Source: Candidatus Woesearchaeota archaeon (GTDB taxonomy: Archaea; Nanobdellota; Nanobdellia; Woesearchaeales; ARS49). From it: DNA of 64,000 nucleotides. The stretch lies in contig JAWCRZ010000003.1 in the NCBI GenBank assembly GCA_038868995.1, forward strand, positions 2,109 through 66,108. The letters are read 5' to 3'. The position numbers were made by a program, and so were the translations under genes. Below the pieces are notes generated by a model. It was not told the DNA's origin. It ran no database searches and saw nothing but the letters and a program-made list of their open reading frames with translations. This document shows positions 1,372-56,144 of the stretch, one piece after another (position 1 is the stretch's first letter; the number at the start of each line of letters is the position of its first letter).

Positions 1372-1405
1372 GGTTAAGTCAAGTTTCTGGTGCTGGCTGT
1401 CCGCC
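1372..1405. mobile_element. internally deleted remnant of the family-1 hairpin MITE (left terminus only)
   Basis: GGTTAAGTCAAGTTTCTGGTGCTGGCTG is identical to the left terminus of the copies at 17091 and 55747. It is flanked by the direct repeat CTTTTTAG (1364-1371 and 1406-1413). Confidence 0.6.
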
Positions 1406-1449: not shown

Positions 1450-3963
1450 ATGGACGAGTCAAAAATCAAAGAGGAAGTGCGTTTGAATGCTTCCTTGAAT
1501 CCTGAAAAGTTTTTCCCTGTTGATACGCTGAAGAAGCGAGGTTTTTCCCGTCATCAGTGCTCTAAATGCCTGCGTTTCTTCTGGTCTGTCCACAAGCAGG
1601 ATGTTTGTGGCGACCCTGCCTGTTCCGGCGGCTTTCGCTTTATTGGCCATCCTATGAAGAGGCAGCTTGATTATATTCAGGTCTGGCAGGAATTTGCGCG
1701 TATTCACAGGAAGCTTGGTTATACTCCAATAAAGCGCTATCCTGTTATAGCCCGCTGGAATCCCACAACTGATTTTACAATTGCCTCTATTGCCGCGTTC
1801 CAGCCGTTTGTGGTTTCTGGTGAAATCGCTCCTCCTGCAAATCCTCTTGTTATTCCTCAGATGTGTGTTCGGTTCCCTGATATTGACAATGTTGGCATTA
1901 CAGGTCATTGTGTTGCTTTTGTGATGATGGGCCAGCATGGCTTTTTCCCTCCAAAGCAGTATGATGTTAACAAGTATTGTGATGACCACCTGGTTTGGCT
2001 GCATGAGGGGATGGGCTTGCAGATGCAGGATATCACTGTCCATGAGGATGTCTGGGCTGGCGGAGGCAATCTTGGCCCGTGTATGGAGTTTTTCTCGAGG
2101 GGCCTTGAAATTTCCAATCAAGTGTATATGCAATATGAAATCACTTCTTCAGGATTGAAAGAGCTGAACATCAAGGTGCTTGATATGGGTCAGGGCCAGG
2201 AGCGCGTGGCTTGGTTTACTTCTGGCAAGCCATCTATTTATGAGTGTGTCTTTCCTCCGGTCATAAGGAAGATGCGTGAGGTGACTGGCGTAGAATATGA
2301 TGAAGAGTTCATGAAGAAATTCACTCCTCTTGCTCCTTATCTCAACATTGGGGAAGCGAAGGATATCAATGCTGCGTGGAAGTTTGTCGCAGACAAGCTT
2401 AAGATGGATGTTAAATCCTTGAGAGACAAAATTCTGCCGCTTGCTGCCTTGTATGCTGTTGCCGAGCACAGTCGTGCGCTTCTTTTCGCGATTAATGACG
2501 GTGGCCTTCCTTCAAATGTTGGCGGCATGTATAATTTGCGCGTCATTCTGCGCAGAGCGCTCGGATTCATTGAAAAGTACGGCTGGAAGCTTGGTTTGCC
2601 GGAGATTTGCAGGTGGCATGCTGATTATCTTGAGCCACTGTATCCTGAATTGCAGGAAAATATTGATGAAGTGTGTGAGATTCTGGATGTTGAGCGCAGG
2701 AAGTACGAGGCGACTCGTGAAAAGACAAAGTCCTTGCTGCCTCGTCTGCTTGAAAGGAAGCTTTCAACTGAAGACCTTATTACTATTTATGACAGTCAGG
2801 GAATTGCTCCTGAGCTGATACGCGATGAGGCGGCGAAAATTGGAAAGGATGTTGTAATTCCTGAGAATTTTTATGCATTGGTTGCTGCCAGGCATGAAGC
2901 AAAGGAGCAGGAGCATGCTACTGTGCGTGCTGAGTCCCTGCCTATTCCTCCAACTGTTCCGCACACCAAAGCATTGTACTTTGACGATTATGCCAAATCC
3001 TCTTTTGACGGCAAAGTCGTTGAAATCATTGGTAACAATGTCATCTTGGACCAAACTGCTTTCTATCCCACTTCTGGAGGCCAGTTGTCTGACCGCGGAA
3101 CATTGGAAGGTAGCAAAGTTGTAGATGTCTTCAAACAGGGTCCTTATATCGTTCACGTGCTTGATGGAAAACCCAAGTTTCATGCTGGAGATACAGTGCA
3201 TGGTGATGTTGATTTCGAGCGGAGGGTCCAGCTTGCCCAGCACCATACTGCTGCGCATATTATCAATGCTGCTGCCCGTGCTGTCCTTGGCCCACATGTT
3301 AATCAGGCCTCTGCGAAGAAGGATGTTGACAAGGCACATATTGACATTACTCATTATGAAAGTTTGACTGACGAGCAGCTTGAACGTATTGAAGAGGAAG
3401 CCAACAGGATTGTTCGGCAGGGCATTAAGACGAGATTGCATTTTATGCCGCGTGAAGAAGCTGAAAAGATTTATGGAATGGCTATTTATCAGGGTGGAGT
3501 TGCTCCAGGCAAGCAATTGCGTATTGTCGAGATTCCAGGCATTGATGTTGAGGCGTGCGGTGGCACTCATCTCAAGAGTACTTTGGAAGCTGGCAGAATC
3601 AAGTTGTTGAAATCATCAAAAGTAAAGGATGGCATAGTGCGTATTGTATTTGCTGCCGGTCGTGCAGCTGAGAATGTTGCCAATGCTGAGAAGCAGGTGC
3701 TTGACAAAGCTGCTGCCCTTCTTAAATGTGATGTGCATCAAGTTCCAGGCCGTGCTGCTGAGCTTTTTGAAATTTGGAAGAAGGCAAGGAAAGCATTTCA
3801 GAAAAAGCAGCCATTGCCTGACTTGACCCTTAAATCAACTGTTGCAACCGCGACTGATATCATTCAGAAGACAGCTGAAGCCCTTCAAACCCAGCCGGAA
3901 GTTGTTGTCAAGACAATTGAGAGATTCTTGGCTGACTTGGAGAAGTTCAAACTTCAACGCTGA
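1450..3963 (+). CDS. alaS: alanyl-tRNA synthetase, archaeal type
   Basis: 837 aa. The editing-domain motifs HHTAAHIINAA and CGGTHL are present, with archaeal AlaRS N-terminal architecture. Confidence 0.95.
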   Translation: MDESKIKEEVRLNASLNPEKFFPVDTLKKRGFSRHQCSKCLRFFWSVHKQDVCGDPACSGGFRFIGHPMKRQLDYIQVWQEFARIHRKLGYTPIKRYPVIARWNPTTDFTIASIAAFQPFVVSGEIAPPANPLVIPQMCVRFPDIDNVGITGHCVAFVMMGQHGFFPPKQYDVNKYCDDHLVWLHEGMGLQMQDITVHEDVWAGGGNLGPCMEFFSRGLEISNQVYMQYEITSSGLKELNIKVLDMGQGQERVAWFTSGKPSIYECVFPPVIRKMREVTGVEYDEEFMKKFTPLAPYLNIGEAKDINAAWKFVADKLKMDVKSLRDKILPLAALYAVAEHSRALLFAINDGGLPSNVGGMYNLRVILRRALGFIEKYGWKLGLPEICRWHADYLEPLYPELQENIDEVCEILDVERRKYEATREKTKSLLPRLLERKLSTEDLITIYDSQGIAPELIRDEAAKIGKDVVIPENFYALVAARHEAKEQEHATVRAESLPIPPTVPHTKALYFDDYAKSSFDGKVVEIIGNNVILDQTAFYPTSGGQLSDRGTLEGSKVVDVFKQGPYIVHVLDGKPKFHAGDTVHGDVDFERRVQLAQHHTAAHIINAAARAVLGPHVNQASAKKDVDKAHIDITHYESLTDEQLERIEEEANRIVRQGIKTRLHFMPREEAEKIYGMAIYQGGVAPGKQLRIVEIPGIDVEACGGTHLKSTLEAGRIKLLKSSKVKDGIVRIVFAAGRAAENVANAEKQVLDKAAALLKCDVHQVPGRAAELFEIWKKARKAFQKKQPLPDLTLKSTVATATDIIQKTAEALQTQPEVVVKTIERFLADLEKFKLQR

Positions 3964-4222
3964 ACACAGGTTCAGTAATCTTCTCTGATTTGCATTCCGG
4001 ACATTTGCTTGGTCTTTTATGGCGTTCTCTTTTCTTGAAAACAAATCCGCACCCTCTGCACGTGCTGGGCTCCATTACCAGGCGTGCAGGTCTTACAGAT
4101 TGAGCTATGTGTTCCAAATCAATAAGAATGTCCCTTGCATCTGTGTGGAACCATTCTGCAAGTTCTCTGACAGTCATTGATTGTTGTGAGAGTAGTTTGA
4201 TGATGTCCTGCCTTCTGGTCAT
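3947..4222 (-). CDS. small transcriptional regulator, winged-HTH fused to a C-terminal Zn-ribbon
   Basis: 91 aa. The N-terminal RRQDIIKLLSQQSMTVRELAEWF is HTH-like. The C-terminus carries CRGC...CPEC (four Cys). It overlaps the upstream gene by 4 nt (ATGA). Confidence 0.6.
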   Translation of the reverse strand: MTRRQDIIKLLSQQSMTVRELAEWFHTDARDILIDLEHIAQSVRPARLVMEPSTCRGCGFVFKKRERHKRPSKCPECKSEKITEPVFSVEV

Positions 4223-4890
4223 CTGAACAGTTTGTCTAAAATATCAAGCGTGTAGAGCACGATTGCTTCTGCCTGTGTCTTGCTGGGGCTGAAACTGTCT
4301 TTTTTCGTGTGCACGCTGAACACTCTTACCTGATTTATCAAATGAATCTGATTTGGCAGTCCGGGGTCTAACCTGACTCCATGTTCTGACAATTTTGCTA
4401 TCAGCGTGCCCAGTCCGGTTCCCGGAGCTTTTTCCAGCAAATCATTTCCGGTCGCCTCAAAGTATTTTCTGTGTAGTGCTGTCTCCATCACTCTGCCGCA
4501 CAGCACAACAGCACTTCTGTAGCATCCCGCATTGATGCACTTTTGTATTTCCAGCAAATCTGCAGTAACGTCTTCCTTTATTTCTGCTGGCAGTTTTGGC
4601 ATTTTGAAGCTCTTTTTCTGTTCATTTGTCTCACCTGCTATCATATCTGCCAGTTTTTCCACATACCCGATAATTTCCTCTGTTTTTGCAACAGCAAGTT
4701 TCTGCGCAATAGAGTGGGCTTCAGGATTATTCTTTGTTTCCTGCAACAGCCGCTGTATTGCTCCTTTGAGCATCAGCCGTGCTCCTTCCTTTTTTTGTTT
4801 CTTGAAATTGGTAATCAGGCCTTTGCCGTAATCTTCTTGCGCTTGCTTGGCTGCCTGTTGTATATCGACGAGAATGTGGTGGATGTCCAT
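4219..4890 (-). CDS. helical protein with DUF4145/HEPN-like C-terminal domain
   Basis: 223 aa. The N-terminal half is coiled-coil-like. The C-terminal half has an R-x4-H motif (RVFSVH) in a helical context resembling DUF4145. The family assignment is from memory only. Confidence 0.4.
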   Translation of the reverse strand: MDIHHILVDIQQAAKQAQEDYGKGLITNFKKQKKEGARLMLKGAIQRLLQETKNNPEAHSIAQKLAVAKTEEIIGYVEKLADMIAGETNEQKKSFKMPKLPAEIKEDVTADLLEIQKCINAGCYRSAVVLCGRVMETALHRKYFEATGNDLLEKAPGTGLGTLIAKLSEHGVRLDPGLPNQIHLINQVRVFSVHTKKDSFSPSKTQAEAIVLYTLDILDKLFR

Positions 4891-4942
4891 GTTATTAACG
4901 ACACCATAAACATTTATATAGTTATTGATTCTCGACTATATT

Positions 4943-5557: not shown

Positions 5558-6719
5558 AACCGCTTAGAACTTTTTGTTTTTCTCTCAATAATTTGCTTTT
5601 TTGTAAAATTGGTATAATATCAATGCCAAATTTCTTTTTTGCAAGCAGTTTTGCGTAATTGAGCATTAATTCTTTGCTTGCAAATTTTATCGGCTTGGCC
5701 GTTAGCGCTTTTCTTGTCGCTTCTCTCGTCACCCAGACACCCAATGGTAGAACATATTCATCTGTGATGAAGCGCAATGCCAGTACTGTATTCTGTTTTT
5801 TCTGTTGCAGCAAATGTTCAGCTATTGCCATTCTTACAGTATAATATCCGCCTGCGCAGTTTTCTGCATAATCCTTCCTCCCATTAAACCCTTCATAATC
5901 CGTGCTGTATTCCAATACGCCTGGTTTTACGTACATCTCAAATAATTCGTAGCTCCATTGCTCTGGGAAAAAGAGCAGAAGATAATAGTTTCCCAAATAA
6001 TTTCCAAAGTATGCGGCATATTCTCCAATCTTCTGTTCTCTGACTTTTTCAAGGAAATTTTTCGCCAGAATGTCATCTGTCGCTGTTATGCTCCATCTGG
6101 TTGGCACTAATTTGCGTTGTTTTCCAAACACTCCTACTGAAAGCATTCTGCTTAATGCATTCTCATCAAATGAGTGCTCATAAAGCGTTGTGACTGCTTC
6201 TGCTGCCCGCACATCAGTATCGTCAAAGAATTTCTGCACTTTCGTCGGCACGCGCGGATTGCTTGCCAGCTTCAGCTGCTTCAATTTTGCCTGTGGTCCC
6301 ATTGGTGCAACCCATCTGTCCGTTTGCAAGTTTAAGCTGGGTTTTTTCTCAAGCTCTACTTCAATGTCAACTGGTTTTGCTGCCATTGCAACATCCTGTG
6401 CTATCTCCACCAGTTTGTCTGGCTTTTTGATGTTGCTGGTGAATCTGCTGTTGACCAAGCTTGCCCTGAATGCTGCAACATCTGCAATGCCCATATTCTG
6501 TTGTGCCCAGTGTCGTGGCGCGTCATATTCCCATGCGTTCTCATCATGTTGCTGCGGCGCCAATATTCCTACATTGACATAAGGATATCCAAATCTGCCG
6601 ACAAACGGCGCAGGTGCAGTGCCGGTAAACTCTTGCTGTCCAGTAAGCGGTTTTGCCTTGAAGAGGGCGTGCTGGAGAATTCGTTCTTTTTCCTTGTAGC
6701 TGACCCCCTTTACGTACAT
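5550..6719 (-). CDS. Nre-family (NreA-like, DUF650/DUF651) putative DNA repair protein
   Basis: 389 aa. The N-terminal segment APAPFVGRFGYPYVNVGILAP resembles the conserved Nre motif. The assignment is by recollection of the family signature. Confidence 0.45.
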   Translation of the reverse strand: MYVKGVSYKEKERILQHALFKAKPLTGQQEFTGTAPAPFVGRFGYPYVNVGILAPQQHDENAWEYDAPRHWAQQNMGIADVAAFRASLVNSRFTSNIKKPDKLVEIAQDVAMAAKPVDIEVELEKKPSLNLQTDRWVAPMGPQAKLKQLKLASNPRVPTKVQKFFDDTDVRAAEAVTTLYEHSFDENALSRMLSVGVFGKQRKLVPTRWSITATDDILAKNFLEKVREQKIGEYAAYFGNYLGNYYLLLFFPEQWSYELFEMYVKPGVLEYSTDYEGFNGRKDYAENCAGGYYTVRMAIAEHLLQQKKQNTVLALRFITDEYVLPLGVWVTREATRKALTAKPIKFASKELMLNYAKLLAKKKFGIDIIPILQKSKLLREKQKVLSGFN

Positions 6720-14356: not shown

Positions 14357-14396
14357 TTTTGGTATATTTAGGGTATATAAAGACTGTGGTAGAAAG

Positions 14397-14530
14397 GCTG
14401 TATTGAAAAGTTTTCAATGGGCCCTGGTCTCACAGCGTGAGACTTCCTTTTTTCCTCGCCTGCGCAGGGGAGAAAAAAGGAACCTTGGCTTTGCCAGGGC
14501 GGGGTCTGCGCTGAACCTTTCAATACAGCC
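14397..14530. mobile_element. family-2 hairpin MITE (134 bp) with 9-bp target-site duplication
   Basis: The termini are GCTGTATTGAAAAG and CTTTCAATACAGCC, forming inverted repeats. It is flanked by GGTAGAAAG at 14388-14396 and 14531-14539. Its core is homologous to family 1. Confidence 0.75.
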
Positions 14531-14539
14531 GGTAGAAAG

Positions 14540-15762: not shown

Positions 15763-15773
15763 CTTTGCCTGCG

Positions 15774-15898
15774 GGTGCTGTCAACTTAATGGTGCCGCGC
15801 TGGCCTGACTTTTCTTCTCCCCTTGCAAGTGCGGGGTGAGAAAAGTCATCTCGGCAACGTCGAGGCAGCGCGGCCAGCACCAGAGAGTTGACTTAACC
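15774..15898. mobile_element. family-1 hairpin MITE (125 bp) with perfect 9-bp target-site duplication
   Basis: It runs GGTGCTGTCAACTTAATGGTGC...CACCAGAGAGTTGACTTAACC and is flanked by TTGCCTGCG at 15765-15773 and 15899-15907. Confidence 0.85.
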
Positions 15899-15911
15899 TT
15901 GCCTGCGAAAT

Positions 15912-15921
15912 GTTTATATAC
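15912..15921 (+). promoter_or_regulatory. TATA-like box for the 15943 gene
   Basis: GTTTATATAC is centred about 26 nt upstream of the ATG at 15943. Confidence 0.45.
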
Positions 15922-15942: not shown

Positions 15943-16299
15943 ATGTCAAGAACAAATCCGCGCCCATCTGCCGAAATTATTCAGTTTGTCGGTGTTTCTG
16001 ACCTTGATGCTGAGGAGCAGGCTACAGTACATGCCATAACAACTGAGCATTTTGCTAAAATCAAGCGTGACTTGCAGAACATTACCAATATGACTGTTCA
16101 CGTTAAATGTTATCAGAAAGAGGGGGGCAGGAAGAAGTATTCTATGCACGTCAAGGTTGCCGCGCCGACAAGAATTTTTGACAGTTCTAACGCTGATGAC
16201 TGGGAGCTTCCAAGAGCTTTGCACAAAGCATTTGAGGATATCCGTCATCAGATTCAGCACAAGTTGCATACTGATAGTACAAGGCCGGATAGACTGTAA
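15943..16299 (+). CDS. small protein with possible HPF/RaiA (ribosomal S30AE-like) fold
   Basis: 118 aa. The predicted strand-helix-three-strands-helix pattern and the C-terminal helix WELPRALHKAFEDIRHQIQHK are colinear with bacterial YfiA/HPF. This rests on pattern resemblance alone. Confidence 0.3.
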   Translation: MSRTNPRPSAEIIQFVGVSDLDAEEQATVHAITTEHFAKIKRDLQNITNMTVHVKCYQKEGGRKKYSMHVKVAAPTRIFDSSNADDWELPRALHKAFEDIRHQIQHKLHTDSTRPDRL

Positions 16300-16366
16300 T
16301 TCTTTCAACTGGACAGTGGACAGTTGTTCATAGCGAATTTAAGCCAATTCTTTCCCGATATTGAGT

Positions 16367-16915
16367 ATGCAACTAACCCCAGAACTTGTTCGAATTCACG
16401 CGCATCTTTGTGGAGACGGCAGCATTTGTGAATACAAATCTTCCGAAAAAGACCATAAAAGACGCGCGGCGGTTCTTTATTGGAATACGAACTCAGAACT
16501 CATAGAGTCTTTTAGACGAGATATGACTGCAGAATTTGGAGTGAAGATGACATATAGCCCTAAAAGTTGCAGAGTGGCAGTCCGGAGTTTAAGGATTGCG
16601 AGACGATTGCTGTCTTTGTCACAATATAAAACTCGAACTTGGCGTGTGCCCGAACGCATCAAGAAGGCTTCACGCGAGTTGCAGATTGAATGGATTAAGG
16701 CATTCTCATATGATGATGGGTATACTCCGAGGGAAAGAAAAGTTATACGACTCAAGTGCATGAACTACCATGGACTTAAAGACGTCAAAGAAATGGTTGA
16801 CAAATTAAGAATAAAAAACTCATTCACTGGACCTAATTGTGATGGGACTTGGTATTTGAATATTCACAAGCAAAAAGAGTTATTTGATTTTGTCAAGAAA
16901 CCTTCAAGAAAATAA
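16367..16915 (+). CDS. free-standing double-motif LAGLIDADG homing endonuclease-like protein
   Basis: There are two LAGLIDADG-like motifs about 100 aa apart: HAHLCGDGS and IKAFSYDDGY. An alternative TTG start lies at 16361. Confidence 0.6.
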   Translation: MQLTPELVRIHAHLCGDGSICEYKSSEKDHKRRAAVLYWNTNSELIESFRRDMTAEFGVKMTYSPKSCRVAVRSLRIARRLLSLSQYKTRTWRVPERIKKASRELQIEWIKAFSYDDGYTPRERKVIRLKCMNYHGLKDVKEMVDKLRIKNSFTGPNCDGTWYLNIHKQKELFDFVKKPSRK

Positions 16916-16939: not shown

Positions 16940-17045
16940 TAGCGGGAGGTGGAAGTTCAGCCGGCGCAGTCAAGCACACGGGCATTTGAACCACCGAGCT
17001 ATGGGTTATGAGCCCATCGGGAACTCCAGACTTCCCTACCCCGCT
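16940..17045 (-). tRNA. initiator tRNA-Met (CAU) containing a 31-nt non-canonical intron at position 59/60
   Basis: Acceptor AGCGGGG/TCCCGCT with an A1:U72 pair. The anticodon arm ATGGG-CTCATAA-CCCAT has three G:C pairs. The T arm GGTGG-TTCAAA[intron]T-CCACC is interrupted at plus-strand positions 16954-16984. The mature length would be 75 nt. Confidence 0.8.
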
Positions 17046-17080: not shown

Positions 17081-17090
17081 GTTTGCTCAG

Positions 17091-17232
17091 GGTTAAGTCA
17101 AGTTTCTGGTGCTGGCTGGCCGCTCTGGTCCTCTGGACTCATTTTTCTCTCCTCCTCGCAGGTGCGGAGGAGAGAAAAATGACCTCAGCGAAGCTGAGGC
17201 TGAGCGGCCAGCACAATTAAGTTGACAGCACC
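17091..17232. mobile_element. family-1 hairpin MITE (142 bp) with perfect 9-bp target-site duplication
   Basis: It runs GGTTAAGTCAAGTTTCTGGTGCTGGC...GCACAATTAAGTTGACAGCACC and is flanked by TTTGCTCAG at 17082-17090 and 17233-17241. The central 17-bp stem is perfect. Confidence 0.9.
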
Positions 17233-17244
17233 TTTGCTCAGTAA

Positions 17245-17255
17245 CCTTTAAATAT
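17245..17255 (+). promoter_or_regulatory. TATA-like box for tRNA-Ser
   Basis: CCTTTAAATAT is centred about 30 nt upstream of the tRNA 5' end at 17280. Confidence 0.45.
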
Positions 17256-17279
17256 GCTCGATAAGGTGCTTTTCTTCAT

Positions 17280-17365
17280 GCCGGCGTGGCACAACCTGGT
17301 ACTGCGCGGGATTGCTAATCCCGTTTCTCGCAAGAGATTTCCCGGTTCAAATCCGGGCGCCGGCG
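17280..17365 (+). tRNA. tRNA-Ser (anticodon GCU)
   Basis: Acceptor GCCGGCG/CGCCGGC, anticodon arm CGGGA-TTGCTAA-TCCCG, a long variable arm (TCTC-GCAA-GAGA), T arm CCCGG-TTCAAAT-CCGGG, discriminator G. Confidence 0.9.
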
Positions 17366-17411
17366 TATTTTTGTCAGAAAGCTTTAATATGTTTGATGCT
17401 CTTGTTGAAAT

Positions 17412-19818: not shown

Positions 19819-20472
19819 ATGCAAAAAACAGTGGTGATGTCTGTTGGCGGTAGTTTAATCAATCCCGGCAAGATTCAAGTCGGCTTTCTTAGGCACCTTA
19901 AAAAGTTTGTGAGCAGGAGCCAGCACAAGTTCATTATTGTTTGTGGCGGTGGTTATAATGCCCGCGCCTATCCTTCCGCTGCAAAACTTTTTGGTGTGGA
20001 TAATGTCGGGCGTGATGAAATAGGAATTAAGGCGACTGTTCTTAACGCTGAACTTCTGCGCCAGATTTTCAGGGCAATGCCTGTGCAGCAAATGCCAAGA
20101 AGAATTTCTTTTAGAAAGATTATGGTAGCTGCTGGCTGGAAGCCGGGCTGCTCTACCGATTACGACGCTGTTCTGTGGGCAAAAAAGTTTGGTGTGAAGG
20201 ACGTTATCAATCTCAGCAACACTGATTATATTTACACAAAAGACCCAAAAAAGTTCGAGGATGCAAGGCCTTTGAAGAAAATCTCGTGGAAAGCATACAG
20301 AAAAATGATTTCTGCAAAATGGTCTGCAGGGCTTTCAACGCCGTTTGACCCAATTGCTTCAAGGGTTGCTGAAAAGTGGAAAATGAGGGTTTTGTGCATA
20401 AATGGAAAAAAGCTTAATGAGTTGTCAAAAGCTTTTGCAGGAAGGAAATTTGTTGGCACGGTGATTGGATGA
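19819..20472 (+). CDS. pyrH: UMP kinase, archaeal type
   Basis: 217 aa. The N-terminus VVMSVGGSLINPG and IIVCGGG indicate the amino-acid-kinase fold typical of archaeal PyrH. Confidence 0.8.
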   Translation: MQKTVVMSVGGSLINPGKIQVGFLRHLKKFVSRSQHKFIIVCGGGYNARAYPSAAKLFGVDNVGRDEIGIKATVLNAELLRQIFRAMPVQQMPRRISFRKIMVAAGWKPGCSTDYDAVLWAKKFGVKDVINLSNTDYIYTKDPKKFEDARPLKKISWKAYRKMISAKWSAGLSTPFDPIASRVAEKWKMRVLCINGKKLNELSKAFAGRKFVGTVIG

Positions 20473-22406
20473 AAAAGCTTCTTATGCTGCTGTTACTGGT
20501 CCCGCTGGTCCTCGCCCAACCGACTGATTGGTTTAAGGCGGGCTTGGTTAAGACGAGGATGGAAGCATCCTCTGTTATTGAATTGCAACCGCGCGGACCA
20601 AATCCTTTTGTTGAGTCAATCCGGACAGACGTTATTTTTGTTCCTCAAAACTCCGAGTTTTCTGCTGTGAGGAGTTTTGATGCGACACCTTCTGCCATTG
20701 CCACTGGCGATCGTGTCCGGTTTGAATGGCGCGCTCCGCAGATAGGAAAATTGTCATACAAATACCAGGCAATTGTTGAAACCGCTAATAATGCTCCAAG
20801 GGTTGCTGCAAAGATTCCATATCCTTTTAAAGTGCCTCCTAATCTTGAAAAGTATGTCAAACCTACACAAAATATTGATTCTAACAATCCAAAGGTGTTG
20901 GGTCAGGCGTATGCCTTGGCACAGGGTGAGGATGACTTGTTTTTGTTGGTAAGCAAGATTGCAATATGGACCAAGAATAATGTTAGGTATAACCTAAGCA
21001 CGCTGACGGCTGATGTTTCCCAGCCGGCCTCCTGGGTGCTCGAAAACAGGTATGGTGTTTGTGATGAGATTACCGGCTTGTTTATTGCTATGCTGCGTGC
21101 ATTGAAGATTCCGGCAAAATTTGTTTCTGGCATTGCATTCACCAATTCTGTTGAGTTTCCGCAAGGGTGGGGCGCGCACGGCTGGGCTGAGGTGTATTTT
21201 CCTGGTGTTGGCTGGGTTCCTTTTGACCCTACTTTCGGTGAATATGGCTGGGTTGACCCGAGCCATATCAAGCTGAAGGAAAGTTTTGATCCTCAGGAGC
21301 CGACTACTGTGTTTGAATGGAAGGCGCGGGATGTCGATGTCAGGGTTGAGGACTTGAAGCTGGGCGCTGAGAAAATCGACCAGTCGGGCAGTGTGCCTTT
21401 TGAGCTTAAGTTGTCTGCCGCTCCGTTGAGGCCGCGCGTTGGCTTTGGCAGCTTCAATGGTGTTGTCCTGAACATTGAAAATCTTGCTGACTATTATGTT
21501 GGGGCTGAGTTCAGCTTGTCTCGGGTTACTGATATGACTATTCTTGACGGGGAATCAAAGCAGATTGCCCTGCCTCCGAAAGGGCGTGGACGTCTGTTTT
21601 GGAAGGTGAAAGTGCGGGAAAATCTTGACCCGCATTTCCAGTATGAACTGCCGATTCGCATTTACACAATTAGGAATGATACTGTTGAGACCGCGTTTGG
21701 AGTTGGCCAGTGGGATATCGTGTTTTCGCAGGCGGACATAGATACTGAAATAACCAGGCTTTCGGCAACCCAGCGCGATCCGTTGCAGTTGGCGTGCGTG
21801 CTGAAGGATGACATGATTTGGGATGATGTTGGCAGGGTTGATTGCCTTGTACAAAACAAGGGAGAAAAAGAGCTTCCTGTGAAAGTGTGTTTTGGGCAGT
21901 GCCGTGAGGCGATTGTTCCAGGTAATTCAAACTTGCCTGTATCCTTTGACATTCCAATGCCAGGCCCTGGCCAGAAGGAAGTTGTTGTGACTGCTTCTTC
22001 CGGTGACTTGGAGAAAAAGGCAGTGCTCACCTTGGTGCGCTTGGAAGAGCCGCGCATTGCCATTAAGGATATATCATTGCCTGAGCGCATCCTGTACGGG
22101 GATACTTTTACTTTGCTGTTCACTTTGTCGCGTGAAAGCATCTCGCTTCCTGAAAACGTCACTGTTAATGTCGAAGGTGGTGGAGCAAAGGCAAAAGTTG
22201 AGGTTGGTGACCTTTTAATCGATCAGGAAGTGCACGTCAACATCCGCTCTGACCAGTTGTATTCCGGTAATCCGTTGTTTGACATTGATGTTACGTATCA
22301 GGATCCATTCGGCCAGCAGTATCACGAAAGCGCTTCTGCTTCCACATTTGTTTCAGATGTGCCATGGTATAAGCGTTTCCTCGGCTGGTTTATTGACCTC
22401 TTTTGA
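20469..22406 (+). CDS. secreted transglutaminase-like domain protein
   Basis: It has a signal peptide. The transglutaminase core is YGVCDEITGLFIAMLRALKIPAKFVSG...HGWAEVYFPGVGWVPFDPT, giving the Cys-His-Asp triad. It overlaps pyrH by ATGA. Confidence 0.8.
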   Translation: MKKLLMLLLLVPLVLAQPTDWFKAGLVKTRMEASSVIELQPRGPNPFVESIRTDVIFVPQNSEFSAVRSFDATPSAIATGDRVRFEWRAPQIGKLSYKYQAIVETANNAPRVAAKIPYPFKVPPNLEKYVKPTQNIDSNNPKVLGQAYALAQGEDDLFLLVSKIAIWTKNNVRYNLSTLTADVSQPASWVLENRYGVCDEITGLFIAMLRALKIPAKFVSGIAFTNSVEFPQGWGAHGWAEVYFPGVGWVPFDPTFGEYGWVDPSHIKLKESFDPQEPTTVFEWKARDVDVRVEDLKLGAEKIDQSGSVPFELKLSAAPLRPRVGFGSFNGVVLNIENLADYYVGAEFSLSRVTDMTILDGESKQIALPPKGRGRLFWKVKVRENLDPHFQYELPIRIYTIRNDTVETAFGVGQWDIVFSQADIDTEITRLSATQRDPLQLACVLKDDMIWDDVGRVDCLVQNKGEKELPVKVCFGQCREAIVPGNSNLPVSFDIPMPGPGQKEVVVTASSGDLEKKAVLTLVRLEEPRIAIKDISLPERILYGDTFTLLFTLSRESISLPENVTVNVEGGGAKAKVEVGDLLIDQEVHVNIRSDQLYSGNPLFDIDVTYQDPFGQQYHESASASTFVSDVPWYKRFLGWFIDLF

Positions 22407-22534
22407 GAGTCAAGTTTCTGGTGCTGGCTGCTCTTGTCCTTTGGACTCATTTTTCTCTCGCAGGTGAGGAGGATAGAAAAATGACCTCGGCGAAGCTGAG
22501 GCAGAGCGCCCAGCGCCATTAATTTGACAGCGCC
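22407..22534. mobile_element. family-1 hairpin MITE (128 bp, left tip shortened)
   Basis: It runs GAGTCAAGTTTCTGGTGCTGGCTG...CCATTAATTTGACAGCGCC. The flanks CTCTTTTGA (22398-22406) and CTCTTCTGA (22535-22543) match at 8 of 9 positions. Confidence 0.75.
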
Positions 22535-22546
22535 CTCTTCTGATAA

Positions 22547-22557
22547 GCTTTATAAAC
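22547..22557 (+). promoter_or_regulatory. TATA-like box for the 22579 gene
   Basis: GCTTTATAAAC is centred about 27 nt upstream of the ATG at 22579 and 3 bp after the MITE duplication. Confidence 0.45.
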
Positions 22558-22578: not shown

Positions 22579-24408
22579 ATGTCAAAGAGTGTGGTGGAAA
22601 AGCTTGTTCCTGACACCTCTGTTATCATTCAGGGGCTGGTAAGCGAGCAGTTGACCAAGGGAGAATTGCAGGTTGGAGAAGTCATTATACACGAGGCTGT
22701 TCTTGCCGAGCTTGAGCACCAGGCTAATGCAGGGCGTGCTTCCGGCTATGTTGGTCTTGATGAGGTTAAGCGCTTGCACGAGATGTCTGAGAAGAAGCGC
22801 ATTTCTGTGAGGTACGCAGGTCATCGTCCGGGAGCAGGTGAAATAAGGTATGCCAAGCTTGGAGAGATTGACAGTATTATCCGCCAGCTTGCGTATGACG
22901 AAGACGCCTCTTTGTTCACAGCTGATAAAGTTCAGGCAAAGGTTGCAGAGGCAAGGGGCATTAAGGTTATCTTTGTTCCGCAGAAGGAGTATTGCCCAAA
23001 GCCGTTGAAGATTGATAATTATTTTGATGAAACAACAATGTCTGTTCATTTGCGCGAAAAAGTTCTGCCTATGGCAAAGAAGGGAGCGCCGGGCAACTGG
23101 GTGTTTGTCCCGATTAAGAACAAAGCAATGACTTCTGATGAAATCAAGGATATTTCGCGCGAGATGATTGAGGAAGCTGGCTGCAGAACTGATGGCTTTT
23201 TGGAAATCCAGCGCGAGGGCTCAACAATTGTTCAATTGGGATTGTACAGGACAGTTATTTTGCGCCCGCCTTTCAGTGACAATTGGGAAATCACTTGTGT
23301 CAGGCCTGTCAGAAAGCTTACTTTGAAGGATTATGAGATGTCTGAAAAATTGCGTGATAGAATCTCTTCACAGGCAGAAGGCATTCTTATTGCGGGTGCT
23401 CCTGGAATGGGCAAGTCAACTTTTGCGCAGGCATTGGTTGAGCATTACGCTGAGGCAGGCAAGATTGTAAAGACGGTTGAGGCGCCTAGGGACCTTGTTT
23501 TGCCTGACACAATAACCCAGCTTTCTTACAGCAGGAGTTCTCCTGAGGAAGTGCATGATGTCCTATTGCTCTCGCGTCCAGATTACTCTTTATTCGACGA
23601 AATGCGTAACGTACCTGATTTTTTGTTATTCACTGACATGCGTCTTGCCGGTGTCGGCATGATTGGTGTAGTTCACGGCACTAATCCGTTGGACGCCATC
23701 CAAAGGTTTATCGGCAAGATTGATTTGGGAGTTATTCCGCATGTTGTTGATACTGTTGTTTTTATCAGCAAGGGAAGGGTTGACAAGGTGTTAAGCATCT
23801 CAATGATTGTGAAAGTTCCTGCAGGCATGACAGAAGCAGACCTTGCCCGTCCGGTTGTTGTCATCAGCGATTTTGAAACTAACAAGGCAGTTGCAGAAAT
23901 TTATTCATATGGAGAAGAAACAGTGGTCGTTCCAGTTCAGGAAACCAGGCCCACCGGCGCGCACGGTCTTGCTGCAAAGCAGATTGAGAGGATTTTTCAG
24001 AAATACAGCGAGAATGTTAGGGTTGAAATGATTTCCGACCAGAAAGCAGCTGTTTACGTTCCTGAAAAATACATTCCTTCAATTATCGGCCAGGGCGGCA
24101 AGAACATTCAGGCATTGGAACAGCAGTTGGGCATTGGCCTTGATGTGCGCCCTTTGGGCGCGGAGCCAAGAAAGTCCGTCGGCGCAGGAATTCCATATAA
24201 GGTGTCTGGCAGCAGCAAGCATGTTGAATTTCTGCTTGGCGACCAATATTCAGGCAAGGATGTTGACTTGTTTGTCAATGACGAGTATCTTGCAACCTTT
24301 GCTGTAAGCAAGAAAGGCGTAGTAAGAATTAAGAAATCCAACAAATTGGGCAAGGTTGTGATTGATGCTATGGACCACGGCGAAAAAATCTCTTTTGTAG
24401 GTGCGTAA
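22579..24408 (+). CDS. PIN domain - PilT-like ATPase - KH domain protein (COG1855-type)
   Basis: 609 aa. It has an N-terminal PIN-like region (VPDTSVIIQG), a Walker A IAGAPGMGKSTF, and a C-terminal KH motif IIGQGGKNIQALE. Confidence 0.75.
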   Translation: MSKSVVEKLVPDTSVIIQGLVSEQLTKGELQVGEVIIHEAVLAELEHQANAGRASGYVGLDEVKRLHEMSEKKRISVRYAGHRPGAGEIRYAKLGEIDSIIRQLAYDEDASLFTADKVQAKVAEARGIKVIFVPQKEYCPKPLKIDNYFDETTMSVHLREKVLPMAKKGAPGNWVFVPIKNKAMTSDEIKDISREMIEEAGCRTDGFLEIQREGSTIVQLGLYRTVILRPPFSDNWEITCVRPVRKLTLKDYEMSEKLRDRISSQAEGILIAGAPGMGKSTFAQALVEHYAEAGKIVKTVEAPRDLVLPDTITQLSYSRSSPEEVHDVLLLSRPDYSLFDEMRNVPDFLLFTDMRLAGVGMIGVVHGTNPLDAIQRFIGKIDLGVIPHVVDTVVFISKGRVDKVLSISMIVKVPAGMTEADLARPVVVISDFETNKAVAEIYSYGEETVVVPVQETRPTGAHGLAAKQIERIFQKYSENVRVEMISDQKAAVYVPEKYIPSIIGQGGKNIQALEQQLGIGLDVRPLGAEPRKSVGAGIPYKVSGSSKHVEFLLGDQYSGKDVDLFVNDEYLATFAVSKKGVVRIKKSNKLGKVVIDAMDHGEKISFVGA

Positions 24409-29793: not shown

Positions 29794-29830
29794 GAGGCAG
29801 AGCGGCCAGAACCATTAATTTGACAGCACC
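29794..29830. mobile_element. right-arm fragment of family-1 MITE
   Basis: GAGGCAGAGCGGCCAGAACCATTAATTTGACAGCACC aligns with the right arms of the copies at 22407 and 55747. No matching left arm or duplication was found. Confidence 0.6.
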
Positions 29831-29842
29831 GTCCGATAGAAA

Positions 29843-29855
29843 CCTTTTTAAATGG
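29843..29855 (+). promoter_or_regulatory. TATA-like box for aIF5A
   Basis: CCTTTTTAAATGG is centred about 28 nt upstream of the ATG at 29877 and 12 bp after the MITE fragment. Confidence 0.45.
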
Positions 29856-29876: not shown

Positions 29877-30278
29877 ATGACGACGAAAGTAGTTGGGGCT
29901 GGAAGCGTTAAGGAGGGCAGTTTTATCGTTATTGACGGGGTTGCCTGCAAGGTTGCAAGCGCTGAAACCTCAAAATCGGGAAAGCACGGTCATGCAAAAG
30001 CACGGATTGTGGCTATCGGCTTGCTTGACAATAAGAAGCGCGAGATAGTGCTTCCGGCACACGACAATGTCGAAGTTCCTATTATTGAGAAGAAGTCAGC
30101 ACAGGTGTTGAGCGTATCTGGCGACATGGCTAATGTTATGGATGATGAGACGTACGAGACATTTGACTTGAAGATTCCTGAAGAGCTTAAGGGTTCTGTC
30201 GTGCCAAACTGCAAGATTCTCTACTGGACAATTCTGGGTGAAAAGGTAATGAAGCAGTTGAAGGGAGGCGCTGAGTAA
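29877..30278 (+). CDS. eif5a: translation initiation factor 5A (aIF5A)
   Basis: The ATG at 29877 gives MTTKVVGAGSVKEGSFIVIDGVACKV...TSKSGKHGHAKARIV, which includes the hypusination loop. The track ORF start (29781, TTG) runs through the MITE fragment. Confidence 0.9.
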   Translation: MTTKVVGAGSVKEGSFIVIDGVACKVASAETSKSGKHGHAKARIVAIGLLDNKKREIVLPAHDNVEVPIIEKKSAQVLSVSGDMANVMDDETYETFDLKIPEELKGSVVPNCKILYWTILGEKVMKQLKGGAE

Positions 30279-54803: not shown

Positions 54804-55193
54804 ATGATAAAACTTGAAAGATATGGTGATTCATTTTACGCGGTGTTCCGCATTTTTGTCGGCTTGCTGTTTATGCAGCATGGCTTGCAGAAATTGTTTG
54901 GCTTGATTGGAGGTAATGCCGCTTCTGCGTTCAGCTTGATGTGGTTTGCAGGACTGATTGAGTTTGCTGGTGGCTTGTTGATAGCCGTCGGCTTGTTCAC
55001 GCGAATTGTTTCATTCATTGCAGGTGTTGAAATGCTTGTTGCGTATTTCAAGGCGCACTTTCCTCAGGGCTGGGTTCCGATTATGAACAGGGGTGAGTTG
55101 GCTTTGCTTTTCTTCGCGGCATTTCTGGTGTTGATGTCGCAGGGCGCTAAGAAGTGGTCTTTTGACAGTATTTGTTCAAGAAATAATCAGTAA
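54804..55193 (+). CDS. DoxX family membrane protein
   Basis: 129 aa. It has RIFVGLLFMQHGLQKLFG and four hydrophobic helices. Confidence 0.75.
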   Translation: MIKLERYGDSFYAVFRIFVGLLFMQHGLQKLFGLIGGNAASAFSLMWFAGLIEFAGGLLIAVGLFTRIVSFIAGVEMLVAYFKAHFPQGWVPIMNRGELALLFFAAFLVLMSQGAKKWSFDSICSRNNQ

Positions 55194-55702
55194 TTGCAGG
55201 GTCCTGGCGTCATGCCGATGATTCGTCCGGTCGAGCCGCAGATACGCTGGCAGACCATGCGCGCTTGTCCTTCATTGTCTGCGGTGATTGCTTCTGTTGG
55301 ACAGCTGCACGTGTAGCATTCCTGTCCTTGGGATGGATGCGGCATTATTCCTGCTTGGCAGTCGGCAAGGCATTGCCGCAGTGCTTCTCCTCCGAGTGGC
55401 TGTTGTCCGACTGATGGCCTTCCTGGTTCTGTTCCAAAGCATGCTGCCTGACAGTCGGTTACACTGCCGGGTGTTCCTATCATATATCTCCCCGGCTGGT
55501 CTTCTGTTGGTATCATTCCGCCGGCATATGCTTCGTATGGGCTTTGGAATTGGCTTGGGTCCAGTGGTATGCTGCCGTACGGTGGTCCGCGGTATGCCAT
55601 GCCTTCTGGTATTCCGTACAGCATGGTATATGTTAGTCCGATTGCCGCTATGAGCGCGAACGCAAGAAACAGGTATAGTTCTACTCTCCCTCTTTTTGGC
55701 AT
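55187..55702 (-). CDS. membrane-anchored Cys-rich protein, unknown function
   Basis: The ATG at 55702 (MPKRGRVELYLFLAF...) lies 26 nt downstream of a TATA-like box (reverse strand TTTTTAAATG). The C-terminal half has 12 Cys. The track start is a TTG at 55714. Confidence 0.5.
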   Translation of the reverse strand: MPKRGRVELYLFLAFALIAAIGLTYTMLYGIPEGMAYRGPPYGSIPLDPSQFQSPYEAYAGGMIPTEDQPGRYMIGTPGSVTDCQAACFGTEPGRPSVGQQPLGGEALRQCLADCQAGIMPHPSQGQECYTCSCPTEAITADNEGQARMVCQRICGSTGRIIGMTPGPCNY

Positions 55703-55746
55703 GGAAGGAAGCAATTATCGCTCATTTAAAAATTTTTTTAATCCAC

Positions 55747-55871
55747 GGTTAAGTCAAGTTTCTGGTGCTGGCTGCTCTTGTCCTTTGGACTCATTTTTCT
55801 CTCGCAGATGCGGAAAAATGACCTCGGCAAAGCCAAGGCTGAGCGGCCAGCACCATTAAGTTGACAGCACC
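55747..55871. mobile_element. family-1 hairpin MITE (125 bp) with perfect 9-bp target-site duplication
   Basis: It runs GGTTAAGTCAAGTTTCTGGTGCTGGCTG...CAGCACCATTAAGTTGACAGCACC and is flanked by TTAATCCAC at 55738-55746 and 55872-55880. Confidence 0.9.
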
Positions 55872-56144
55872 TTAATCCACAGTCAGCAATTCGTCCAGTT
55901 CTTTCTGCCATAGGGCGATTTGCTGGTTGATAATCTTGAGTATTAGGTTTATGTTTACTTTTTGGAAGGGGATTAGAATGTTTGCTTCAAATTTGAGTTT
56001 GAGGTCATGGTCGGCGAGCAATGGAAGTATTGCCTTGAGGTCGTCTGTGTTTTGGAATCATCTTTTCATCAATGCGCGGAGGGTATCTATTTGTTCTTGT
56101 ATGTCTGCTGGTGACTTTGTTGGGTAGCGGACATTTGTTGTCAT
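55872..56144 (-). pseudogene. 90-codon reading frame interrupted by one in-frame TGA (possible decayed small gene)
   Basis: Reverse frame gives MTTNVRYPTKSPADIQEQIDTLRALMKR*FQNTDDLKAILPLLADHDLKLKFEANILIPFQKVNINLILKIINQQIALWQKELDELLTVD. The TGA is at 56058-56060. The terminal TAA lies inside the MITE duplication. Confidence 0.25.

Follow-up and report, generated by a model that had tools for sequence, protein, structure and literature searches.

The analyzed window, a 64,000-nucleotide stretch of DNA, carries archaeal housekeeping genes (SMC, RNase HII, RtcB, archease, IF5A, GatD/E, Rpb7, and the CCA-adding enzyme, among others), is approximately 93% coding, and has a GC content of 45%, with 4,130 intergenic nt left once the elements described below are removed. 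Proteins labeled as Woesearchaeota or Nanoarchaeia are the best homologues of its PIN/KH ATPase, the closest at 90% identity, and another comparison matched one window protein at 100% identity to a protein from an NCBI MAG of a Candidatus Woesearchaeota archaeon. The host is an archaeon of the Woesearchaeota-type DPANN. Upstream of the gene for tRNA-Ser(GCT) lies a 142-bp element that serves as the type copy of a family of non-autonomous DNA transposons (MITEs), termed family 1 here. The features at this locus are as follows.

17091..17232, plus strand: family-1 MITE, type copy, 142 bp, with an internal palindrome; terminal repeats at 17091-17116 and 17207-17232
17082..17090: left 9-bp target-site duplication of the type copy, TTTGCTCAG
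17233..17241: right 9-bp target-site duplication of the type copy, TTTGCTCAG
17247..17254, plus strand: predicted TATA box TTTAAATA of tRNA-Ser(GCT) (17279-17366), 14 nt from the end of the 17091 element and preceded by a BRE-like TAACC

The original prediction had described imperfect 26-bp terminal inverted repeats framed by a perfect 9-bp direct repeat, and both descriptions hold: the left end, GGTTAAGTCAAGTTTCTGGTGCTGGC, and the reverse-complemented right end, GGTGCTGTCAACTTAATTGTGCTGGC, are identical by count at 19/26 positions, and the direct repeat is the duplication listed above. Its description of the 142 bp as a near-perfect hairpin was right about strong folding and needs a small correction as to shape. 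As single-stranded DNA, 17091-17232 folds at -50.6 kcal/mol, compared with a mean of -20.7 for dinucleotide shuffles (z = -10, with 0/200 shuffles equally good), and the predicted structure is a branched, imperfect hairpin.

The three further copies and the second family that had been predicted were all recovered by BLAST, and both predicted remnants are present as well. The remnant at 1372 is, however, an internally deleted copy rather than a mere end, because TCTTTTTAG and CCTTTTTAG still flank its 33 bp as a duplication. These elements are distributed over the window as follows.

15774..15898, minus strand: family-1 MITE, 125 bp; perfect duplication TTGCCTGCG at 15765-15773 and 15899-15907
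22407..22534, plus strand: family-1 MITE, 128 bp, left tip 4 nt short; 8/9 duplication, CTCTTTTGA at 22398-22406 and CTCTTCTGA at 22535-22543
55747..55871, plus strand: family-1 MITE, 125 bp; perfect duplication TTAATCCAC at 55738-55746 and 55872-55880
1372..1404, plus strand: internally deleted family-1 copy, left terminal repeat plus 7 nt (33 bp); 8/9 duplication, TCTTTTTAG at 1363-1371 and CCTTTTTAG at 1405-1413
29794..29830, plus strand: family-1 remnant, 37 bp, right end only
14397..14530, plus strand: family-2 MITE, 134 bp, with termini GGCTGTATTGAAA, between the divergent SMC and rotamase promoters; perfect duplication GGTAGAAAG at 14388-14396 and 14531-14539

Tabulating the flanks, as had been suggested with the prediction, revealed 9-bp duplications at family-1 and family-2 elements alike. 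Three are perfect and one is 8/9 in family 1, the deleted 1372 copy adds another 8/9, and the single family-2 duplication is perfect; the duplicated sequences are unrelated between sites. The family-1 terminal inverted repeats, approximately 26 bp long, are conserved across copies with the consensus GGTKMWGTCAASTYWMTKGTGCTGGC, and a degenerate 20-nt terminal-repeat pattern matched 10 times in the window against 0.11 matches expected. In the 15774 copy, the internal module runs in the plus orientation, but the termini are inverted with respect to those of the type copy. At the 22407 copy, the left duplication includes the stop codon of the ORF at 20469..22406, and the two duplicates differ only by a synonymous substitution, TTC>TTT, in the final sense codon of that upstream ORF. 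The left end at 1372 and the right end at 29830 were also considered as the bounds of one 28-kb composite element, a candidate that was rejected since their flanks share no duplication. No further MITE families were found in the window by intergenic self-BLAST and fold z-scores.

Altogether, seven elements lie in the 64 kb, the MITEs being 125-142 bp long and without coding capacity, and one more lies just outside. This seventh family-1 copy, the eighth element overall, is located approximately 2.1 kb ahead of the first window position and was seen on one of the short-read contigs that SRR27730035 provides for the organism (L038 1-85). Those contigs terminate within MITE copies, as a dispersed repeat would lead one to expect. 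The resulting density of approximately 109 per Mb agrees with the high density originally claimed, but it is not without precedent, since a 2024 census had assigned 105 MITEs/Mb to one Woesearchaeal genome, which ranks second among archaea (PMC11602168).

A related MITE of 145-147 bp occurs on two contigs of metagenome sample Ga0180432 (L013 1936-2080 and L025 1540-1686). Its termini are GGTGCAGTCAACTTAATTGTGCC / GGTGCAGTCAACTCAGATGTG, and its 9-bp duplications are ATTCTTTAG (perfect) at L013 and CTTTTTAAT/CTTTTTAAG at L025. The gene beside it has a Woesearchaeota protein as its closest named homologue (57% identity), and the contigs represent a different lineage, as judged from a GC content of 33-36% versus 45% in the window. 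These two contigs held the only real related MITE among 14 matches in a scan of JGI metagenomes, the other 12 being chance or uninterpretable. A scan of GTDB species representatives yielded only one chance match, in a Chloroflexia MAG, and two viral-contig scans, including IMG/VR, yielded chance 20-mers only; all of these scans required exact matches to the degenerate terminal-repeat pattern. As far as checked, the family is undescribed, with no true match in public representative genomes.

All six family-1 copies in the window, together with the L013 and L025 copies, share one layout with respect to a predicted promoter: the element end, 9 nt, 5 nt (WAAnn), and then a TATA box of the form TTTWWAWA. 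The distance from element end to TATA is 14 nt in 8/8 copies. The sites read as follows, each in the order of duplication, 5-nt spacer, TATA box, and downstream start.

1372 copy: CCTTTTTAG, TTACT, TTTTTAAA (1419-1426), AlaRS ATG at 1450
15774 copy: TTGCCTGCG, AAATG, TTTATATA (15913-15920), ATG at 15943
17091 copy: TTTGCTCAG, TAACC, TTTAAATA, tRNA 5' end at 17279
22407 copy: CTCTTCTGA, TAAGC, TTTATAAA (22549-22556), ATG at 22579
29794 remnant: GTCCGATAG (9 nt in the place of the duplication), AAACC, TTTTTAAA (29845-29852), IF5A ATG at 29877
55747 copy, read on the minus strand, its left end facing the promoter of gene 55187..55702: GTGGATTAA, AAAAA, TTTTTAAA (55725-55732), start at 55702
L013 copy: ATTCTTTAG, AAAAA, TTTTTAAA, start at 2125
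L025 copy: CTTTTTAAG, TAATA, TTTATATA, ATG at 1743

From the start of the TATA box to the start codon or tRNA 5' end the distance is 30-32 nt at 7/8 sites; at L025 the ATG lies 42 nt past the TATA start, which points to a short leader. Other predicted promoters in the window show the same spacing, which is, as far as sequence can tell, the geometry of archaeal promoters giving mostly leaderless transcripts. The 5-nt spacer fits the BRE-like WAASC present at other predicted promoters in the window. Among the six family-1 copies, the terminal repeat that faces the promoter is of the right type at four and of the left type at two. TTTWWAWA at this spacing is found at approximately 1% of intergenic positions, giving p ~1e-12 for 6/6 under a uniform-intergenic null, a value to be read with a register sample of n = 8 from two lineages, a motif and spacing defined post hoc, and promoters that are consensus predictions.

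The six copies mark approximately 13% of the TATA-motif matches in the intergenic DNA of the window (6/47). A search for excision footprints, in the form of tandem 9-mers 5 nt upstream of other TATA boxes in the window, found none. The single family-2 element (n = 1) has a divergent TATA box on either side, at distances of 9+3 and 9+6 nt instead of 9+5, and a degraded relative in L034-L036 lies approximately 16 nt from its TATA. This degraded element and the terminal-repeat-like matches in L016 and L021 are too decayed for register scoring. The fixed 14-bp register to the TATA box, which we rate as the most interesting feature of the family, went unmentioned in the original prediction.

That the elements are MITEs is almost certain. 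A relative represented by L008 (JGI 3300037465) and L009 (a Logan contig) shares approximately 90% amino-acid identity and the same gene order with the window, and in both contigs the 22407 locus is empty: CTCTTCTGA occurs there once, whereas the window carries CTCTTTTGA, the 128-bp element, and CTCTTCTGA. In this spacer, bounded by the transglutaminase-like gene and the PIN ATPase gene, the empty locus of the relative reads ...GACCTCTTCTGATAACCTTTATAAAC, and the filled locus of the window reads ...GACCTCTTTTGA, the 128-bp element, and CTCTTCTGATAAGCTTTATAAAC. The 14397 locus, in the SMC/rotamase spacer, is likewise empty in L008, with a single GGTAGAAAG in place of GGTAGAAAG, the 134-bp element, and GGTAGAAAG. 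Because these are clean empty sites at two insertions, the elements are read as MITEs and not as RNA genes. The prediction had called them MITE-like and non-autonomous and had looked to related genomes for empty sites; the terminal repeats, the 9-bp duplications, the two empty sites, and the lack of an ORF all bear this out. A reading as conserved genes for structured RNAs, or as regulatory hairpins of the host that are native to intergenic sites, would fit the strong fold, the invariably intergenic and promoter-proximal placement, and the oligo-T on each strand of the central palindrome in both families, which could be an archaeal terminator. However, perfect 9-bp duplications of unrelated sequence surround copies, the copies occur in both orientations, and they differ through indels that cut back the tip of the hairpin, not through compensatory changes. 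In addition, no MITE matched Rfam at E <= 1, and the syntenic DNA of four relatives, approximately 50 kb in all, contained no copy. The prediction had named an RNA gene conserved at orthologous sites as the finding that would overturn it, and the relatives are instead empty, with no compensatory changes seen. Structured RNA as the primary explanation is refuted by the empty sites, and we consider this reading extremely improbable, although MITEs may have been co-opted secondarily as terminators or insulators.

Since the TATA box is present at the empty site, it belongs to the target DNA and not to the element, and the question becomes what fixes the distance between the two. An ordinary MITE that is blind to promoters might acquire a 14-bp register as the residue of purifying selection in a genome that is approximately 93% coding, if insertions survived only in the gap of a few bases that separates a stop codon from the BRE after it. 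The spacers are indeed tiny: the empty site in L008 is a stop codon followed directly by TAACC-TTTATAAA, insertion at just one position at 22407 would leave the ORF whole and also keep 14 nt of native upstream promoter sequence, and several sites lie between divergent promoters just 16-18 nt apart. Yet, given the 9-bp duplication, an insertion could move by several nucleotides without harm, and still 8/8 copies keep a single register. Approximately 380 nt of non-coding DNA lie on the other side of 55747, and tolerated positions number approximately 20-30 at 1372 and approximately 9 each at L013 and L025. A rough product of such counts gives an estimated p < 1e-6, even under one-sided constraint, and a second lineage, with 33-36% GC, shows the register again. 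A single-nucleotide register in 8/8 copies is more than purifying selection explains by itself, and we regard such selection as an unlikely origin of the pattern. We consider it quite likely that the transposition machinery itself picks the register, that is, that insertion is actively targeted to promoters.

Under active targeting, a transposase encoded elsewhere would bind the terminal repeats and insert the element across a 9-bp staggered cut, the repair of which would produce the 9-bp duplication. In the observed pattern, the duplicated 9 bp always span -14 to -6 relative to the TATA box and adjoin the 5-nt BRE-like motif, and the element comes to lie between the stop codon on its upstream side and the downstream promoter, with neither disrupted. 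The transposition complex may read the promoter either as the BRE/TATA sequence itself or as DNA bound and bent by TBP/TFB, and the enzyme may, tentatively, be an IS256/Mutator-like DDE transposase. The terminal repeats, together with a duplication of fixed length, lead us to infer mobilization in trans by a DDE enzyme. We lean somewhat toward the more specific proposal of a Woesearchaeota DNA-transposon system whose transposase reads the basal promoter (BRE/TATA, or TBP/TFB-bound bent DNA) in a single-nucleotide register and duplicates -14 to -6. The explanation as a whole, namely, MITEs in a Woesearchaeota-type DPANN archaeon, promoter-register targeting, and a tentative IS256/Mutator-like enzyme, is in our judgment probable.

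The prediction that the window holds no transposase-like ORF was confirmed: no transposase domain was found by Pfam in approximately 60 window ORFs, and neither the window nor any fetched locus gave a tblastn match to the IS256 transposase. Pfam likewise found no transposase among 8 ORFs beside terminal-repeat matches in L021 and L025. No longer element with the same termini was found, by exact pattern, in the window, the fetched loci, GTDB species representatives, JGI metagenomes, or IMG/VR. The termini had not been recognized as those of any described IS or MITE family, and they now appear not wholly unfamiliar. They were compared with IS1A from E. coli and IS256 from pTEF1, that is, with two families represented by one reference each. 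IS256 is an element of Staphylococcus and Enterococcus, with ISH6 and ISM1 as archaeal relatives. Aligned without gaps and anchored at the tip, the four terminal-repeat types match the left and right IS256 inverted repeats at 9-15/24 positions, with most pairs at 12-15; shuffle p ranges from 1e-4 to approximately 0.09 and is <0.05 for all pairs but one, and the best offset is 0. The blocks held in common are T at 3, GTC at 7-9, and GTG at 19-21. The MITE terminal repeats are 26 bp long with both 3' ends reading ...CC, and the duplications are 9 bp; prokaryotic Mutator-like elements, whose transposases comprise IS256, ISH6, ISLre2/TnGBS, and ISKra4, are bounded by inverted repeats of 18-39 bp with a terminal C and make direct repeats of 8-9 bp (Guerillot et al. 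2014, PMC3942029). A Mutator-like enzyme is thus a serious but tentative candidate, judging from the termini, and the assignment to a family is tentative as well.

Alternatively, the MITEs might be deletion derivatives of an IS1-family insertion sequence, mobilized by an archaeal IS1 transposase. IS1-family transposases do exist in archaea, for example, in Sulfolobus (PMC3718332). IS1 duplications are 8-9 bp, as at the E. coli copy examined, and GGTG..CTG.CAACTTA is common to the MITE right repeat and the IS1 inverted repeats; the right repeat GGTGCTGTCAACTTAATGG and the IS1 left inverted repeat GGTGATGCTGCCAACTTACTGAT thereby share GGTG, CTG, and CAACTTA in a gapped alignment (shuffle p ~0.004). 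However, this likeness requires a 3-nt gap and involves one terminal-repeat type only: the left terminal repeat fails (p ~0.3), the Ga0180432 termini are weak, and IS256 matches better, ungapped and tip anchored, across all terminal-repeat types. To our knowledge, IS1 does not insert at a fixed distance from promoters. The MITE termini fit the IS256 inverted repeats better than the IS1 ones, which weakly favors a Mutator/IS256-like enzyme, and an IS1 origin seems to us rather improbable.

MITEs in archaea, and dense MITEs in a Woesearchaeal genome, were already known, and the new part, as far as the searchable literature shows, is the fixed register to the TATA box. Full-text literature searches returned no report of an archaeal transposon at a fixed register to BRE/TATA, and the promoter register appears to be undescribed for archaea. 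If the targeting is true, this would be the first case of archaeal promoter-register transposition and a counterpart, independent or homologous, of bacterial Mutator-like sigma-A targeting and yeast Ty3/TFIIIB targeting, so that safe-haven targeting (Ty3, Dictyostelium TREs, and TnGBS/ISLre2) would reach a third domain of life. Such a strategy would let a transposon build up to approximately 100 copies per Mb even where approximately 93% of the genome is coding, and it would account for the persistence of mobile DNA in streamlined genomes of DPANN symbionts. The elements would also be a natural probe of the archaeal pre-initiation complex, as the transposase must sense either BRE/TATA or TBP/TFB, and a promoter-targeting transposase is a candidate tool for low-damage insertion in archaea. 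On the practical side, MITE copies break short-read assemblies.

Several known systems resemble these elements in part. The IS256 family shares duplications of 8-9 bp and termini that align gap-free from the tip, but IS256 itself inserts apparently at random (PMC3942029), whereas the MITEs lie in a fixed register. The only archaeal observation given in that study is the duplication of an AT-rich 8-mer by ISH6 (PMC3942029); ISH6 differs in duplicating an 8-bp AT-rich motif, AANATNTT, whereas the MITEs insert beside one. The Sulfolobus MITEs SM1-SM4 and SMN1 and the DPANN MITEs of the census, compared here by description, are also short, non-coding, bounded by terminal repeats, flanked by duplications, and mobilized in trans, but the studies consulted report no fixed promoter register for them (PMC3718332; PMC11602168). 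Ty3 of yeast and the TRE elements of Dictyostelium take a fixed position relative to an initiation complex that is TBP/TFIIB-like (TFIIIB) and find a safe haven in a compact genome; these are, however, eukaryotic retroelements that use an integrase, and the analogy is one of strategy only.

The closest known behavior is that of bacterial elements. The TnGBS/ISLre2 group and part of ISKra4 insert 13-17 bp upstream of sigma-A promoters, with a peak at 16, the distance being that between the tip of the inverted repeat and the nearest promoter element, and the authors explain this by contact with the transcription initiation complex, comparing it to Ty3 and TFIIIB (PMC3942029). Elements with near-symmetric inverted repeats insert both ways round, and otherwise the right repeat adjoins the promoter (PMC3942029). 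The same authors tie promoter targeting to a transposase motif located between domains N1 and N2. TnGBS/ISLre2/ISKra4 (p-MULT 3 and 4) and the MITEs have in common 8-9-bp repeats, inverted repeats ending in C, and a fixed short distance to a promoter. They differ in that the former are bacterial and are positioned relative to the -35/-10 elements of sigma-A promoters, whereas the MITEs are archaeal and lie 14 bp from BRE/TATA. The former are, moreover, autonomous insertion sequences or ICEs, whereas only non-autonomous copies are seen here. The one-way orientation of the bacterial elements is not found among the MITEs (four right and two left), an exemption that elements with near-symmetric repeats also enjoy. 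By analogy, the MITEs described here appear to behave like an archaeal version of TnGBS/ISLre2/ISKra4.

Families 1 and 2 of the miniature elements have unrelated termini, but have in common a palindromic centre with the pattern TTTTT(T)CTC...GAG(A)AAAAA (17140-17185 in the family-1 type copy and 14445-14482 in family 2), which therefore presents an oligo-T tract of 5-6 nt on each strand. These tracts could separate the promoter from the gene upstream, serving as a bidirectional archaeal terminator or insulator. The likeness between the two palindromes (E = 0.29) is too short to prove a common origin. Within family 1, the terminal repeats of the copy at 15774-15898 are reversed relative to its internal module, which is asymmetric. 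The module gives its best alignment in plus orientation (score 73 versus 41), whereas the terminal repeats match those of the type copy in reverse orientation at 24/26 and 22/26 positions. This arrangement suggests that the inner palindrome was flipped or that inverted copies recombined.

A short-read contig from the same organism (L038) carries at one end another family-1 copy (1-85), which belongs to the 15774 subtype and maps about 2.1 kb upstream of window position 1. On the side that can be seen, this copy directly adjoins the stop codon of a convergent gene; the side expected to face a promoter is cut off. Further pieces were found on contigs of a third Woesearchaeote (L034-L036) and on two metagenome contigs (L016 and L021):

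L034 8476-8530, L035 99-153 and L036 2666-2720: degraded relative of the Ga0180432 MITE, 76% over 55 nt
L016 23-52 and L021 1429-1500: start of a GGTTAAGTCAA(S)TTAATTGTGCAAC terminus

The degraded Ga0180432-type element lies upstream of the Rpb7 gene, with about 16 nt separating its end from a TTTTTAAA box, close to, yet outside, the 14-nt register of element end, 9-bp duplication, 5 nt and TATA box. No recognisable partner end accompanies the L016 and L021 termini, and the ~70-bp L021 piece has TGGCTGTTTT at both flanks; these two pieces may represent the same superfamily in decayed form.

One tRNA gene in the window was detected neither by ARAGORN nor by Rfam:

16940-17045, minus strand: tRNA-Met(CAT) gene, with an insertion at about 16953-16983

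Its T-loop/T-stem is split by 31 nt (TTCAAAT-[GCCCGTGTGCTTGACTGCGCCGGCTGAACTT]-CCACC), and a relative carries the same gene without interruption (L010, 433-507). The insertion is probably a non-canonical intron. Adjoining the gene is an ORF (16361-16915) that is weakly LAGLIDADG-like. In L008, a locus from a relative with ~90% amino-acid identity, a second copy of the tRNA-Ser(GCT) promoter, together with the tRNA's first ~20 nt, precedes the complete gene by about 70 nt (6102-6298). The arrangement resembles a scar left by an element that had integrated into the tRNA.

Two of the MITE sites hold other DNA in relatives. Compared with window 15776-15908, L008 has two additional genes of 369 and 694 aa (1693-4941; about 3.2 kb), neither with a Pfam hit; they occupy exactly the position of the 15774 MITE in the interval between the RNase HII gene and a 118-aa gene, and this indel thus coincides with the MITE site. 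At the 22407 site, a single base, TTC>TTT, sets the left copy of the duplication (22398-22406) apart from both the right copy and the empty site in the relative. The change is synonymous and affects the final sense codon of the upstream ORF, which agrees with the left copy now being the true 3' end of that ORF. Another relative (L011, 3635-4099) has an unrelated ~430-bp insert with an 88-aa ORF at this same spot, which runs from the transglutaminase-like gene's stop codon as far as the promoter of the PIN ATPase. Insertions seem to land repeatedly in this narrow gap.
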